From IMG/VR virus record IMGVR_UViG_3300025853_000043: a DNA stretch of 64,000 nucleotides; one strand, 5' to 3'. The notes under the pieces are model-generated. The model saw only the letters and a list, made by a program, of their open reading frames with translations. It was not told where the DNA came from and made no database searches. Origin of the DNA: a virus. Made by a program: the position numbers and the translations under genes. Shown here in pieces: positions 2 to 5,834 of this stretch (position 1 is the first letter of the stretch; every line of letters begins with the position of its first letter).

Positions 2-847
2 GGACTAGTATTTGCTTCTTTTTATGGTGTATTAAATGCAATCGAAGATGTTGAACAAGATATTGACAACGGAACTATAGATCAAGATGAAGGTGCTGAA
101 ATTGTAAATGTTCTTAAAGCACAACTTGCTTTGTGTTTAATCATGTCTTTAATGGTTATCTTTAGGAATGGTGCTTTACTTGGTAAACTAATATCATACA
201 TTAGACCTATTATTAGATTAATTGCAGCTGGTGCAACGGTAAGTGTTGTAGGTACCATACCGGGTATCATTGCGCTGTTAGCAAATGAAGTTGCTTGGGG
301 TTTAGTTATCTATGCACTAAGTTCACCTACCGTACAACGATCTGTTGCCGAATTCATTGCTGGCTCATTATTAGGACCTGTTATAGCAGAAGCTGGAAAA
401 TATGCAGGTACAGCAATGCAGTTCTTAAACCAAGCTAGTGAAGAAATGCTTGGTGTTAGCATTAGAGACGGTGACTTGTTTGGTTTCGATCAAACTGAAA
501 GAGGTGGTAGAGAAGGAGAATACTATGCAAGTGCTGAATGGGCAAAGCTATTATTCCAAGACATGTTATTTCCTCCAGCACAGAAATCAATGTTAGTTCC
601 TTATATTACACCTGCAAGACGTGAAGGACTATTAGAAGAAGCGTTTGGATTAACCAATCCTACACAAAACCAACCACAAAACCAACAACCGCCAACAACT
701 CAACCTGATGCAACAGATCCTGATGCAACAAGTTCTAATTCAGATGCAGTATCAAGGAAAGCAGATATTGAACGCAGTTTACAAAATACAGACTATTATA
801 ATAATCCTAGTTACACAAGGGCACAACCTGTTAGTGGACCACGTTAA
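2..847 (+). CDS. Hypothetical protein, 5'-truncated by the window edge; hydrophobic middle and P/Q/N-rich C-terminus
   Basis: The frame of ORF 131..847 is open from base 2 (GLVFASFYGVLNAIEDVEQD...); no family recognised. Confidence 0.7.
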   Translation, partial: GLVFASFYGVLNAIEDVEQDIDNGTIDQDEGAEIVNVLKAQLALCLIMSLMVIFRNGALLGKLISYIRPIIRLIAAGATVSVVGTIPGIIALLANEVAWGLVIYALSSPTVQRSVAEFIAGSLLGPVIAEAGKYAGTAMQFLNQASEEMLGVSIRDGDLFGFDQTERGGREGEYYASAEWAKLLFQDMLFPPAQKSMLVPYITPARREGLLEEAFGLTNPTQNQPQNQQPPTTQPDATDPDATSSNSDAVSRKADIERSLQNTDYYNNPSYTRAQPVSGPR

Positions 848-1023
848 AGCAGCGGCATACGAGAATTTTTTGTATTTTCAATATTATCTTTAATAATTCT
901 ACTCATAATTTCTTGATCTTCAATATCAGTATTATATAGCAGGTCGTTATATTGTACGCTGCCTCTCATGTACCAGCATATTCTATATGCGCTATCCTTG
1001 ATTGTTTTTATTTCATTTTCCAT
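844..1023 (-). CDS. Small gp51-like / tail-chaperone C-terminal ORF (59 aa, absent from the ORF track)
   Basis: Hand translation MENEIKTIKDSAYRICWYMRGSVQYNDLLYNTDIEDQEIMSRIIKDNIENTKNSRMPLL*. It lies directly downstream of the gp26-like gene, as gp51 does in T4-like phages. No clear SD; the frame stays open upstream across the gp26 end. Confidence 0.7.
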   Translation of the reverse strand: MENEIKTIKDSAYRICWYMRGSVQYNDLLYNTDIEDQEIMSRIIKDNIENTKNSRMPLL

Positions 1024-1029
1024 TTCTTT

Positions 1030-1083
1030 GGCTAACGATAGGATAGCATCGTTATTTAAAGTCGTTAGCCTGTTGCGAAAAAA
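1030..1083 (-). other. Candidate -1 programmed ribosomal frameshift signal
   Basis: In-frame heptamer T TTT TTC (1083-1077), 6-nt spacer, then stem GGCTAACGA (1070-1062) / TCGTTAGCC (1038-1030). Confidence 0.65.
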
Positions 1084-1904
1084 TCTGATGCGTCTAAGCT
1101 AACTTTTAATTTACTTTCGTGTTTACACTTTTCGCAAGTAACATCTTCAGTTGGTACTTGCCAAACGGTTGTGTTATGTTCAATAACTTCTTTTATTTTT
1201 GTAAAATATTTGACATCATTTTCATTCATAAACTCAATTATTTCATTGGTATTGCTTTCTTTTTGTCCGTCAACTTCTACAGATTCAATTTGTCTAAACA
1301 AAGTCATTACGGTTAGTTCATTAATTTTTTGAACAATGCTTTGAACAAATTTTTCTTTTTCAGTTTCATCTTTGATATTAGCACTTTCTTGAGAAACTGC
1401 ACGTTGATAAGCTACACTTGTTTTTTGAATGTCTGTCCATTCTTCGTATGTTAATGGACGTAAATTAAAAATAAAGTCATCAATTTGAACACGATCTTTA
1501 TACTCTAATGTATGGAAAAAATCTAAATAATTTCTTAAATTAATTTCATAAGCATTATCTTCACCGCATCTTATACAATTTTTATGTACGGTCATTGTTT
1601 CACCGTAAGTTGCCATTCTAATACCAAGTAATAATGTATCGATGTCTAATACTCTAAGTTTCATTGGATTTAAAATAGATGGAACACAACTGCGTATGTT
1701 ACTAGCTGTGGCTTCTCCGTTTACTAATGCATCAGGAGTTTTAAACAATATTTCATCGCTGGCAGTCATACTATAAACTGCTAGATCAGAAACAACACCG
1801 TTAGAGACAATCGACTCATTATACCATTTTCCGTTACTAGGTAAGTTTATAAAAAGTTTAGGTTGTCTACGGTATTTTTTTAAAGGACTTTCTTCGTTTG
1901 TCAT
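1065..1904 (-). CDS. gp26: T4 gp26-like baseplate hub / tail assembly protein
   Basis: RQPKLFINLPSNGKWY, MTASDEILFKTPDALVNG, two CxxC pairs (CIRC, CEKC); divergent from the tape measure gene. Confidence 0.75.
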   Translation of the reverse strand: MTNEESPLKKYRRQPKLFINLPSNGKWYNESIVSNGVVSDLAVYSMTASDEILFKTPDALVNGEATASNIRSCVPSILNPMKLRVLDIDTLLLGIRMATYGETMTVHKNCIRCGEDNAYEINLRNYLDFFHTLEYKDRVQIDDFIFNLRPLTYEEWTDIQKTSVAYQRAVSQESANIKDETEKEKFVQSIVQKINELTVMTLFRQIESVEVDGQKESNTNEIIEFMNENDVKYFTKIKEVIEHNTTVWQVPTEDVTCEKCKHESKLKVSLDASDFFATG

Positions 1905-1970: not shown

Positions 1971-4079
1971 TTGGCAGAAGAAAGCATTTTAAATTTAGAA
2001 CGCTTTACAAACATACTGCAAGGCACAACACAGACTGCTGTTGGCTTAGGCGGTGCGCTTCTCACTGGCCAACAAAATATGAGTGCCTACAGCACTGCAT
2101 TATCTACAACTACAGATGCCTTAGGAGGCATGGGTAAAACACTTGGTAAAGTTGTAAATGGTTTAGTGCAGTTTGCTGAAGCAAGTTTAAAAGAATATCA
2201 AGACCTAAGTGCTATTGGTGCAACCTTTGGCAAAGAAATGGTTGACATTAAAGTTGCTGCTGCTGAAATGGGAATGAGTGTTCAAGAAATGACTACATTC
2301 CTTGGTCAAAACAACAAGTCTTTACGTGCATTTGGTGGTACAACTGATATGGCTATAAGCCGTTTTAGAGAGTTGAACAACCTTGTTTTAAACACACAAG
2401 AATTAGGAACTGAGCTAAGAAAATTAGGTTATACTACAACTGACATTGCAGAAGGATTAGCATTATACGGTGAAATAAGCGATTCAAATGCAAGATCTGA
2501 TCGCAGGAGCACAGCAGAGCAAGCGGCTAGTGCTAAAGAGTTTATGGTACAGCTTGACGGACTAGCAAAACTTACAGGTAAGCAAAGAGAACAAATTGCT
2601 GACGAAATGAAAGAACGCAGACGTGCAGGTGACATAAATGCATTTTTAATGGGCAAGTCAGAAGAAGACCAAGCAGCATTTACTGCACAACTTGCTGAAA
2701 TCCAAGCAAAGTTAGGTAAAGATGCAGCAGACGCATTTGTTGACTTAACATTACGAGGTGCTCCTACTACAGAACAAACTAGAGGTGCCTTACTTGCAAT
2801 GGGTGGTGGTGCTGAAGAATTGTATGCAGCCGCAAGTGCATTTAATAGCGGTAACATTGATCAATTTGCAAATTCAATAGATGCAGCAACAGCAAGTGCA
2901 ATGGAATATCAACGCAGTGAAGATTTTAGAAATACTGCGGTTTTAGGTGGATTAAGCACCGTGTCAAACGCATTTAGTAATGCAAGTGCAGCAAGTTACG
3001 ATTATGCAAATACACTTGAAGGTGCAGCAGAACCTGGCGAAACTGCTGCTCAAACGCAAGCACGATTACAAAATCAAATTTTAGATGAACAATATGTTCA
3101 AATGAAAACTACCACAGGTATTTTAGATGAAACTATTAGAACACAAGAAGCATTGCGTGATCTAAGTGTTACTGCTATGGAAACGGTAATGCCTCGTTTA
3201 GAAGATGTTGCAATGGCTGGTTTAGAAAAATTTAGAGCAGCTATTCCAAGTTCTGATGAAATTGCACAAAAACTTGCAGGTGCTGTAGACGGATTATTTG
3301 ATATGGCTAGATTAGCTGATAGAGAATCTAGAGATCCTATGAATGTAGTAGTAGATGGACAACAAGACTTAAGTCAAGAAAGCACACAACAAGAAGTTGC
3401 ACAAAGTTTAGGTGCAGAAATAGAAGATTCTAAAGAACGTGATAGTGAAACACAAGCTGCAATACAAAAAGCACAAGAAGCTGTTGAAGACGCAAAAGTT
3501 GCAGTGTTTGACGCAGAAATTCGTGTAAATGAATTACAAGAACAAAAAGCTAATATGTTAGCAACTGGTTTGCAAGAAACTGATGGTGCAGTTGTAGGTG
3601 TTTCGCAGCAGTTAGCTGAAGCAGAAGCAAAACTACAAGCAGCTATTAGAGAACAAGCACAAGCAAGTGCTGTTGCCGCTAGTCATAGATTAGGTTTAGG
3701 TGGTAAACTTTTCCGTGGAGGTAGAGCAGAAGGTGGACCTATTGGTGCTAATGAATTTGCTATGGTCGGTGAAGCAGGTCCTGAATTTATTAGCGGACCA
3801 GCAAATGTAATGAGTGCAAAAACAAGTATGGGCGTAATGCAGAATTTAATGAAAACAATTCGCAACGTTGAAAGCACCGTTCAAGAAAGCAATAATAATG
3901 TAGCACAACAGATAAGTACTAATGCATATAGTGGTAATGCTGAATTAGGTACAAAAATGGATAAAATGATTGAGATTTTAAATCAATTAGTGTTTATTGA
4001 GGGCAACGCCGTTACCACACAACAAAGAACATACAGAGCTACCAAAGGCTTACAAAGTAACATGATGAGAGGTTTATAA
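1971..4079 (+). CDS. Tape measure protein
   Basis: 702-aa Ala/Gln/Glu-rich helical sequence with the C-terminal GGRAEGGPIG...VGEAGPEF motif typical of tape measures. TTG start 9 nt after AGGAG. Confidence 0.75.
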   Translation: MAEESILNLERFTNILQGTTQTAVGLGGALLTGQQNMSAYSTALSTTTDALGGMGKTLGKVVNGLVQFAEASLKEYQDLSAIGATFGKEMVDIKVAAAEMGMSVQEMTTFLGQNNKSLRAFGGTTDMAISRFRELNNLVLNTQELGTELRKLGYTTTDIAEGLALYGEISDSNARSDRRSTAEQAASAKEFMVQLDGLAKLTGKQREQIADEMKERRRAGDINAFLMGKSEEDQAAFTAQLAEIQAKLGKDAADAFVDLTLRGAPTTEQTRGALLAMGGGAEELYAAASAFNSGNIDQFANSIDAATASAMEYQRSEDFRNTAVLGGLSTVSNAFSNASAASYDYANTLEGAAEPGETAAQTQARLQNQILDEQYVQMKTTTGILDETIRTQEALRDLSVTAMETVMPRLEDVAMAGLEKFRAAIPSSDEIAQKLAGAVDGLFDMARLADRESRDPMNVVVDGQQDLSQESTQQEVAQSLGAEIEDSKERDSETQAAIQKAQEAVEDAKVAVFDAEIRVNELQEQKANMLATGLQETDGAVVGVSQQLAEAEAKLQAAIREQAQASAVAASHRLGLGGKLFRGGRAEGGPIGANEFAMVGEAGPEFISGPANVMSAKTSMGVMQNLMKTIRNVESTVQESNNNVAQQISTNAYSGNAELGTKMDKMIEILNQLVFIEGNAVTTQQRTYRATKGLQSNMMRGL

Positions 4080-5834
4080 ATGAGTTGGAAAAAATATTTT
4101 ACTCCAGTTCCAACTGCTGACAATAGAAATGGCAGTTATTCGCCATTTTCTATGCGAGGTACAGGTAACGTAGGTCCTGCTGCTGCAAATTATTCTTCTC
4201 ATTTGCCTGACGTATATGTAGGGTCTCCAAATCGTATTGAACGTTATAATCAATACAATACAATGGATAGTGATAGTGAAGTTAATGCTGCACTAGATAT
4301 TCTTGCTGAGTTTTGTTCACAAAAAAACAAACAAAACGATACACATTTTGAAATTGATTTTAAAGGATCACCTACTAACAGCGAAGTACAAGTTATAGGG
4401 CAATATCTAAAGCAATGGTGTAAATTAAATCAATTTGAAACACGTATGTTTAGAACAATACGTAATGCATTTAAATATGGCGACCAATTTTTTATTAGAG
4501 ATCCACAGACACAAAAATGGTATCACGTTGATCCTAGTCAAGTAACAAAAATTATTGTTAACGAAAGCGAAGGAAAAAAGCCTGAGCAGTATGTTGTTAA
4601 AAATTTAAATTTTGCATTTGAAGCACTAGAAGCAACACCTTTAAACACAACTAATAGTTACGGACCTGGAGGAACAAGTCCAGGATATCAAACGGTTACA
4701 AAACAAAGCCAAACAGGTAATCATACACCAAGTGGTAACACAAGTAGATTTGCACAAGAACATGATGAAACTTATGTAGATGCAAATCATGTTGTACATT
4801 TGTCAATGAGTGAAGGACTTGATCAAAACTTTCCATTTGGTAATTCACTATTAGAAAGTATTTTTAAAGTATACAAACAAAAAGAATTATTAGAAGATGC
4901 GATTATTATCTATCGTGTACAACGTGCGCCAGAGCGCAGAGTATTCTACGTTGATGTGGGTAACATGCCTTCACACCTTGCTATGCAATTTGTGGAGCGT
5001 GTAAAAACGGAAATACACCAAAGACGTATCCCATCCAAGACAGGTGGTGGCACAAATGTTATAGACTCAAGTTATAATCCTCTGTCAATCAACGAAGATT
5101 ACTTCTTTCCACAAACTGCTGAAGGGCGTGGCTCAAAAGTTGAAACACTTCCGGGTGGTACCAACTTAGGAGAAATTGATGACCTTAGATACTTTACTAA
5201 TAAGTTGGTACGCGGCTTACGTATCCCAAGTTCGTACTTACCAACTGGAGCAGATGACGGTGCTTCACAATACAATGATGGACGTGTGGGTACTGCCTAT
5301 ATTCAAGAACTTCGCTTTAACAAATACTGCGAACGTTTGCAATCCATGGTTGAAGAAGTATTCAACAAAGAGTTCAAACTATTCTTAGGTTCAAAAGGTG
5401 CAAATATTGATTTTGCAATGTTTGACTTAAGGTTAACACCACCACAAAACTTTGCAGCATATAGACAAGCAGAACTTGATAACAACAGAATAGGAACGTT
5501 TACGCAAATGGCAGGTATACCTTATATCTCAAATAGATTTGCTATGCAACGTTTCTTAGGATTAAGTGCAGAAGAGATTGCAGAAAACGAACGTTTGTGG
5601 AGAGAAGAGAACGACGAAAATCTAGTAGATCTAGTTAACGATGACATGGCAGGTGAAATGCGTGGTGCAGGCCTTAGCGGTGCTGACCTTGCAGGAGACC
5701 TAGGTGGTATGGAAACTGATCTAGAAGGAGACTTGGGCGGCATTGATGGCGGCACTGGAGAAGCACCGGCAACAAATACAGAAAATGATTTAGGCGGAAC
5801 ACCAGCACCTACTGAAACGGCACAAACTATATAA
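4080..5834 (+). CDS. gp20: Portal protein (T4 gp20-like)
   Basis: LLEDAIIIYRVQRAPERRVFYVDVGNMP, EDYFFPQTAEGRGSKVETLPGG, LRIPSSYL; acidic Gly-rich C-terminal tail. Confidence 0.95.
   Translation: MSWKKYFTPVPTADNRNGSYSPFSMRGTGNVGPAAANYSSHLPDVYVGSPNRIERYNQYNTMDSDSEVNAALDILAEFCSQKNKQNDTHFEIDFKGSPTNSEVQVIGQYLKQWCKLNQFETRMFRTIRNAFKYGDQFFIRDPQTQKWYHVDPSQVTKIIVNESEGKKPEQYVVKNLNFAFEALEATPLNTTNSYGPGGTSPGYQTVTKQSQTGNHTPSGNTSRFAQEHDETYVDANHVVHLSMSEGLDQNFPFGNSLLESIFKVYKQKELLEDAIIIYRVQRAPERRVFYVDVGNMPSHLAMQFVERVKTEIHQRRIPSKTGGGTNVIDSSYNPLSINEDYFFPQTAEGRGSKVETLPGGTNLGEIDDLRYFTNKLVRGLRIPSSYLPTGADDGASQYNDGRVGTAYIQELRFNKYCERLQSMVEEVFNKEFKLFLGSKGANIDFAMFDLRLTPPQNFAAYRQAELDNNRIGTFTQMAGIPYISNRFAMQRFLGLSAEEIAENERLWREENDENLVDLVNDDMAGEMRGAGLSGADLAGDLGGMETDLEGDLGGIDGGTGEAPATNTENDLGGTPAPTETAQTI

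Follow-up and report, generated by a model that had tools for sequence, protein, structure and literature searches.

The window analyzed here is a 64,000-nucleotide (nt) stretch of DNA from an uncultured giant phage, taken from IMG/VR virus record IMGVR_UViG_3300025853_000043. It carries on its minus strand a gene of the T4 gp26/gp51 family, and the last codons of this gene contain a candidate site for programmed -1 ribosomal frameshifting. The product of the zero frame, 279 amino acids (aa) long, matched the Pfam family PF12322 ("T4_baseplate") with 50.2 bits against a cutoff of 24.5 (E value of 3.5e-13; model positions 38 to 219 of 219), and PHROG 150 ("baseplate hub") with an E value of 2.5e-15. 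The protein contains two CxxC pairs reminiscent of a zinc ribbon. Their four cysteines (C94, C97, C241, and C244) are invariant in alignment A5, as are D255 and F260, which belong to a D...F-F motif at the end of the domain.

On the minus strand the gene ends GAT TTT TTC GCA ACA GGC TAA, so that T TTT TTC lies in the X XXY YYZ phase expected of a -1 slippery heptamer. The -1 frame is open from about position 1098; read as an extension of the gene, it begins with the CGC codon at 1077, crosses RNRLTTLNNDAILSLAKE, enters a 59-aa open reading frame (ORF), and ends at a stop codon at 846 to 844. A slip at the heptamer would join 276 residues of the zero frame to 77 residues of the -1 frame in a protein of 353 aa, with the predicted junction peptide LDASDFF/RNRL (the slash marks the change of frame). 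A first-pass annotation of the same letters had proposed a fusion of this kind. The zero-frame ending, the heptamer in phase, and the open -1 frame leading into the 59-aa ORF are all present in the sequence as it described them, and its estimate of about 353 aa versus 279 aa agrees with our calculation. The features of the locus are collected in Table 1.

Table 1. Features at the hub chaperone locus and its flank, numbered along the window
Feature	Position	Strand	Basis
PF12322 (T4 gp26/gp51 family) gene; zero-frame product of 279 aa (short form)	1065..1904	-	ORF list, Pfam, PHROG
Slippery heptamer U UUU UUC in X XXY YYZ phase; proposed -1 shift site	1077..1083	-	Sequence and conservation
Spacer between heptamer and hairpin, 6 nt	1071..1076	-	Length constant across 20 sequences of alignment A2
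Proposed stimulatory RNA hairpin; 5' arm 1070..1062, loop of 23 nt, 3' arm 1038..1030	1030..1070	-	Fold and covariation
-1 frame extension, 77 codons plus stop; predicted C-terminal helical domain, only in the 353-aa form	844..1077	-	Translation
59-aa ATG ORF, as a gene caller would report it	844..1023	-	ATG at codon 19 of the extension
Divergent gene for a 702-aa protein, putative tape measure	1971..4079	+	Size, position, virion data of relatives
T4-type portal gene	4080..5834	+	Follows the 702-aa gene

We aligned the locus, as the first-pass annotation had proposed, with homologous loci, comprising 80 from IMG/VR at 34 to 100% protein identity together with cultured phages. The closest cultured relatives of the PF12322 protein are those of jumbo myoviruses, at approximately 27 to 32% identity: Atu_ph07, Sinorhizobium Phosso, Serratia BF, CBB, GAP32, the Asteriusvirus coliphages, PA5oct, and SCTP-2. 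Of 83 sources spanning 30 to 100% protein identity, 81 carry the motif NNT TTT TTC G in phase close to the gene end; of the remaining two, one contig is broken (L038) and the other is truncated (L058). All eight cultured jumbo phages checked (Atu_ph07, Phosso, Serratia BF, CBB, E. coli BF17, PA5oct, SCTP-2, and XaC1) have the heptamer, and in PA5oct the base that follows it is A (giving Gln) instead of G (giving Arg). Over 44 distinct contexts of 66 nt, the sole invariant block was the 8-nt TTTTTTCG, which includes the G at position 1076. The second Phe codon is always TTC, whereas TTT accounts for 85% of the Phe codons elsewhere in these genes, and the codon preceding the two Phe codons always ends in T while the residue that it encodes varies (D, N, S, or H). 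Judged from these alignments, the feature lies far beyond chance.

The frame that follows the heptamer is conserved as well. In 50 distinct homologues the -1 frame stays open over exactly 77 codons, in the 8 cultured phages over 70 to 77, and the +1 frame is closed after 1 to 30 codons. The zero-frame tail past the heptamer has 1, 3, 11, or 12 codons and is unconserved between clades. The -1 peptide is conserved starting at its first residue, an invariant Arg encoded by CGN, which explains the invariant C and G of the site. In codons 19 to 77 of the extension, the ratio of nonsynonymous to synonymous polymorphism (pN/pS) was lowest in the -1 frame, at 0.42 compared to 0.91 and 1.44 in the other two; codons 2 to 18, the 17 codons ahead of the ATG in the window, display coding periodicity in the near clade. 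Purifying selection acts on both frames. Together with the spacer, which is 6 nt in each of the 20 sequences of alignment A2, the heptamer and the open -1 frame have thus withstood the alignment of homologous loci, and a programmed -1 frameshift at U UUU UUC is very likely on this comparative evidence.

Homopolymer runs are error prone on some sequencing platforms, and a sequencing or assembly error in the run of T residues, or the decay of a pseudogene, would give an apparent change of frame. The same arrangement recurs, however, in many samples (50 distinct sequences) and in 8 cultured phages that were sequenced independently, and both frames show purifying selection. Sequencing error was rejected on the recurrence, and the probability that remains for an error or a pseudogene is negligible.

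In the clade of L060 to L076, at 38 to 40% identity, the zero frame runs 11 to 12 codons past the heptamer and ends ...SRNLI, and no consensus hairpin is predicted in the stretch of about 100 nt past the heptamer.

Six nucleotides past the heptamer begins a stem of 9 base pairs (bp), in which GGCUAACGA pairs with UCGUUAGCC. This hairpin, noted already in the first-pass annotation, is the minimum-free-energy fold (-12.2 kcal/mol), and its 5' arm contains the zero-frame stop codon TAA (1067..1065). The inner arm UAACGAU (1054..1048), which had been described as competing for the same 3' arm, does exist; its pairing is far weaker, at -5.4 kcal/mol, and is not conserved in relatives. Covariation of the stem was assessed in alignment A2, which consists of 20 distinct sequences of the window's own clade and in which an 11-pair version of the stem was scored. 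In this alignment 95.5% of the cells were paired, versus 17 to 42% when the partner was slid by 1 to 3 columns. Six of the 11 pairs change on both sides, and the observed covariation score was reached by none of 500 shuffles. The covariation links the zero-frame stop codon, TAA or TAG, with a Leu codon of the -1 frame, TTA or CTA.

A stem is also present at the equivalent place in L077 (3801-3870) and L078 (2013-2080). Its GGC/GCC ends are swapped to GCC/GGC, and its 3' arm lies 8 nt further downstream and encloses a larger loop; judging from these sequences, this hairpin may have evolved independently or shifted.

The main mechanistic rival to ribosomal slippage is transcriptional slippage, in which RNA polymerase would add one U to the message, and a U7 mRNA would then encode an identical 353-aa protein. 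It must be granted to this explanation that the site is a homopolymer of six T residues and that one added U gives exactly D-F-F-R-N-R. Productive sites for efficient polymerase slippage usually comprise at least 8 residues, however, and a run of six is short by this measure. A hairpin placed 6 nt downstream and maintained by compensatory changes has the geometry of a stimulator of ribosomal -1 frameshifting, not that of a promoter of polymerase slippage, and the conserved phase of the heptamer, with the preceding codon always ending in T, is needed by ribosomal slippage only. Transcriptional slippage thus fits the phase and the hairpin poorly, and we consider it quite unlikely.

We next turn to the extension itself. 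With a profile built from its 77 residues, 293 matches were obtained among 1.84 billion proteins. Most of them are short ORFs with inconsistent starts (41, 59, 71 to 75, and 93 to 94 aa), as would be expected when gene callers meet an extension that has no start codon of its own. About 20 matches are single-frame proteins of 319 to 351 aa that carry the extension domain at the C terminus. Their alignment with the window protein extends across the entire PF12322 body and keeps the four cysteines invariant, and their junction, LDxSxxFRxKLI, aligns without gaps with the predicted trans-frame peptide. The structural model of one such natural long protein, P0062, is a single compact protein in which the last three helices are the extension (predicted local distance difference test [pLDDT] score of 94.7; predicted template modeling score of 0.89); the AlphaFold2 model of the extension alone is helical, with a pLDDT score of 85.8. 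Comparison thereby establishes that the predicted trans-frame product is equivalent to full-length proteins that occur naturally.

These long proteins bear on the view that what follows the hub gene is a small gene in its own right, for which translation would start at the ATG at 1023 or by reinitiation after termination of the hub gene. Some observations favor that view: codon 19 of the extension is an ATG in the window, GenBank entries of related phages annotate the ORF in this way, as hypothetical proteins of 58 to 76 aa, and in Serratia BF and E. coli BF17 an ATG overlaps the stop codon of the hub gene. Yet the commonest start position, that of the ATG in the window, is ATG, GTG, or TTG in just 14 of 52 distinct homologues, no other position is conserved as a start, and many relatives have F, Y, or L in place of the Met. 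With no start codon conserved, the extension is in general not translatable on its own. The 18 codons ahead of the ATG are conserved as protein from the heptamer on, in the natural single-frame proteins all 77 residues form a C-terminal domain that packs against the body, and PA5oct has a 73-codon open -1 extension (L098 2325-2550) over which no feature is annotated. Independent translation of the 59-aa ORF was rejected on the grounds of the missing conserved start and of the coding conservation upstream of the ATG, and we regard a separate gene as highly improbable. By the same comparisons, the predicted 59-aa protein corresponds to the distal portion of a C-terminal domain of 77 residues and does not represent an independent gene.

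In all six contigs that were informative on this point (L084, L085, L093, L096, L103, and L105), the single-frame long gene directly follows a PF12322 gene that lacks the extension and encodes 276 to 329 aa; L096 also has the portal and large-gene synteny of the window. Whereas T4 has two PF12322 genes, a single one occurs in each of the complete genomes of Atu_ph07 and Serratia BF, and it is this gene that bears the slip site. The lineages thus fall into those with two genes and those in which one gene is combined with a frameshift. This distribution is relevant to another explanation, by which the slip repairs an old 1-nt insertion: only the long form would be functional, frameshifting would be efficient, and the 279-aa product would be waste. 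Since TTTTTTCG reads as F-F-R in the -1 frame, the arrangement could indeed stem from a single-base insertion in an ancestral single-frame gene. However, the lineages without a slip site, that is, the six contigs and T4, keep two PF12322 genes, with and without the C-terminal domain, which argues that both forms are needed. The arrangement has, moreover, persisted without reversion in phages of hosts from Escherichia to Sinorhizobium. We consider mere repair of an insertion unlikely.

We suggest tentatively, and with less than even confidence, that the frameshift and the two-gene solutions are interchangeable and have been swapped more than once in the PF12322 family, and that in Rak2-like, Atu_ph07-like, PA5oct-like, and many uncultured marine jumbo phages the frameshift and its covarying hairpin are the rule, without annotation in public records. 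If this were so, the 77-residue domain would be an analogue of the T domain, recruiting a tube or hub partner.

The T4 proteins themselves provide the nearest characterized comparison. T4 gp26 (208 aa) and gp51 (249 aa) score 215.6 and 177.5 bits, respectively, on PF12322, with the model covering residues 1 to 201 of gp51, and both have cysteine pairs equivalent to those of the window protein. The T4 literature counts both among the hub assembly chaperones and reports no gp51 in particles (PMC3004832). T4 gp26 ends ...EFFELL, with its F-F encoded by TTC TTT, which is not slippery, and is followed by gene 25. Genes 26 and 51 are divergent in T4, gp51 being a full-length paralogue, and a layout with gene 51 downstream of gene 26 does not apply there. 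The T4 pair resembles the window in that both belong to the PF12322 family, the short form ends just past the conserved F-F, and the long form has an extra C-terminal part. It differs in that T4 has two divergent genes without a slip site, whereas in the window one gene and a -1 slip would supply both forms.

The C-terminal parts were also compared directly. Aligned by hhalign, the extension profile (A7) and the profile of the gp51 tail (A8) gave a weak match over 36 columns (E value of 5.7e-4; probability of 29%), which joins the gp51 tail to the second half of the extension domain. When full-length profiles were compared with each other, the central part alone aligned. The "hidden gp51-like ORF" of the first-pass annotation is thus upheld as a coding -1 extension, not as a gene in its own right, and its likeness to the gp51 tail is suggestive. 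In precomputed annotations, the tail of gp51 homologues is assigned to a second Pfam family, PF28602.

Taken together, the data favor a model, to which we assign a probability of roughly 85%, in which the gene encodes a hub and tail assembly chaperone of the T4 gp26/gp51 type that is decoded in two ways via a -1 ribosomal slip. Most ribosomes would read GAU UUU UUC GCA ACA GGC UAA and release the 279-aa protein. A fraction would be held up by the 9-bp hairpin 6 nt downstream while UUU occupies the P site and UUC the A site. Both tRNA-Phe molecules would then slip back by one base onto UUU UUU, and the slipped ribosomes would continue with CGC AAC AGG ... for 77 codons, producing the 353-aa protein with an additional C-terminal domain of three helices. 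UUY codons in the A site and all-pyrimidine heptamers are highly shift prone in E. coli (PMC4066793). The two forms would correspond to the short and long PF12322 proteins that are encoded elsewhere as two genes, as in T4 by gp26 and gp51, and they would presumably cooperate at a defined ratio when the central hub and tape measure complex is assembled, as lambda G/GT do. The candidate signal, the dual coding, and the predicted hairpin are established by comparison among relatives.

Several points weigh against this model. That ribosomes actually slip, and with what efficiency, we infer from the conserved signal. A need for both forms is likewise presumed from the two-gene lineages, and the 279-aa product might be a by-product. 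The short paralogues of two-gene lineages (L084 411-1295 and L085 5097-5999) lack all four cysteines and are therefore not simple equivalents of the zero-frame product, although they still end N-F-F or N-F-L a few residues ahead of the stop codon. No consensus RNA structure was predicted in two more distant clades, so the stimulator would be lineage specific and not universal. Finally, homology of the extension to the gp51 C-terminal tail is weak, and the extension profile found no match in the single sequences of T4 gp51 or gp26.

The lambda gpG/gpGT pair and the conserved -1 frameshift of tail chaperone genes were reportedly described by Levin in 1993 and by Xu, Hendrix, and Duda in 2004, and the P2 pair E and E+E', reportedly described by Christie et al. 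in 2002, is said to be the contractile-tail counterpart of G/GT. The window shares with lambda a -1 slip, here predicted, on an X XXY YYZ heptamer that lies only a few codons ahead of the chaperone gene's stop, a short and a C-terminally extended product, and a position adjoining a large gene (in the window, the probable tape measure gene). The products may also resemble those of lambda in being missing from virions, as proteomes of relatives suggest indirectly. In contrast, the gene in the window is divergent from the putative tape measure gene, after which comes the portal gene, whereas the lambda-type gene lies between the tube and tape measure genes. The window protein is also larger than lambda-type chaperones, at 279 and 353 aa, and has a Cys4 motif. 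P2 E/E+E', as generally understood, resembles the window as an assembly chaperone pair of a myovirus made by -1 frameshifting near the end of the upstream ORF; its protein family and gene context are different.

A search for homology to tail assembly chaperones (TACs) gave no match for the window protein in Pfam (including Phage_TAC), NCBIfam, or PDB sequences, with distant homology still possible, and the A5 profile found only chance matches among PDB sequences. In fold searches, the extension alone returned no informative known fold from PDB or BFVD. A full-length natural homologue returned no TAC match (Foldseek PDB and VIA-align), the best Z score of 8.3 being confined to a helical hairpin, and its AFDB cluster matches were to "baseplate" or uncharacterized phage proteins only. 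Hence, the structure comparison with lambda-type chaperones that had been envisaged produced no such match in PDB or AFDB. The likeness to lambda G/GT is one of mechanism and role, with no sequence or fold homology seen. What survives of the proposal of a G/GT-like chaperone system is its logic of a short and a long form, which is supported by the tandem genes in 6 of 6 contigs and by a T4 pair whose members both belong to PF12322; sequence or fold homology to lambda G/T does not form part of it.

According to a review by Atkins et al. (PMC5009743), G-T frameshifting is conserved among long-tailed phages "except T4". The recognition of gp26 and gp51 as T4-type tail assembly chaperones is credited, in two later papers (PMC10274946 and PMC12846349), to Vladimirov, Gautam, and Davidson (Virology 2022;566:9-15, doi 10.1016/j.virol.2021.11.003). 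These citing papers state that some T4-like phages have one short and one long (fused) TAC gene that replace frameshifting (PMC10274946) and that poly-T slippery sequences occur in the TAC-N genes of T4-like phages (PMC12846349). The first-pass annotation did not know the mechanism to be established for T4-type myoviruses; the site that it pointed to is supported here, and the idea, as the citing papers report it, was already published in 2022 (PMC10274946, PMC12846349). With the principle published, the window adds a well-supported further example of it, unannotated in the records inspected. What may go beyond the 2022 work are the covarying hairpin, the breadth across cultured jumbo phages, and the syntenic arrangement of tandem paralogues.

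None of the eight cultured jumbo-phage records (L001, L002, L097, L098, and L099-L102) annotates a frameshift, and in seven of them the extension or part of it is listed as a separate "hypothetical protein" of 40 to 76 aa; PA5oct is the record without such a feature. The genome papers on these phages, where searchable, make no mention of a frameshift. For annotation, our results mean that a 59-aa "hypothetical protein" would become the rear part of a 353-aa trans-frame protein, and that the same correction would apply to every cultured relative inspected, including therapy-relevant phages of E. coli, Pseudomonas, and Pectobacterium. They also provide independent comparative support for the view that T4-type phages obey the short-plus-long chaperone rule of long-tailed phages, T4 itself doing so via genes 26 and 51. 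The choice between frameshifting and gene duplication would constitute a clean natural experiment for asking what makes a fixed ratio between two chaperone forms necessary. In addition, U UUU UUC with a 6-nt spacer and a covarying hairpin of 9 to 11 bp would make a compact bacterial -1 signal that is testable in E. coli.

The order of portal gene, gene for a protein of about 700 aa, and divergent PF12322 gene is common to Serratia BF, CBB, PA5oct, and contig L096. In the virion proteome of CBB, the homologue of the 702-aa protein (CBB_251) is abundant, with 29 peptides, and the list contains neither CBB_249 nor CBB_250 and so lacks the hub homologue. For PA5oct, the record flags the large neighbor "ESI-MS/MS" but not the hub gene. 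Searches with the 702-aa protein gave no match to gp29, a tape measure, or any other family by BLASTP or in Pfam, PHROGs, NCBIfam, or PDB. Its look-alikes in the ESM Atlas include tape measure families at 0.92 to 0.93, which we take as a lead only. From its size, its position, its presence in virions of relatives, and this language-model lead, the 702-aa neighbor is probably the tape measure protein. It is rich in Ala, Gln, and Glu and has a GEAGPE-like motif near its C terminus.

On the other side of the chaperone gene, a plus-strand ORF that is open at its 5' end (window 2-847; at least 281 aa) converges on the extension, its stop codon lying 3 nt from that of the extension. Its first half is hydrophobic and its tail is rich in Q, P, and T; it had no match in Pfam, PHROG, or NCBIfam. 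The 66-nt intergenic region between the divergent chaperone and 702-aa genes (1905-1970) is very AT rich and contains AATAAATA-like motifs reminiscent of T4 late promoters.

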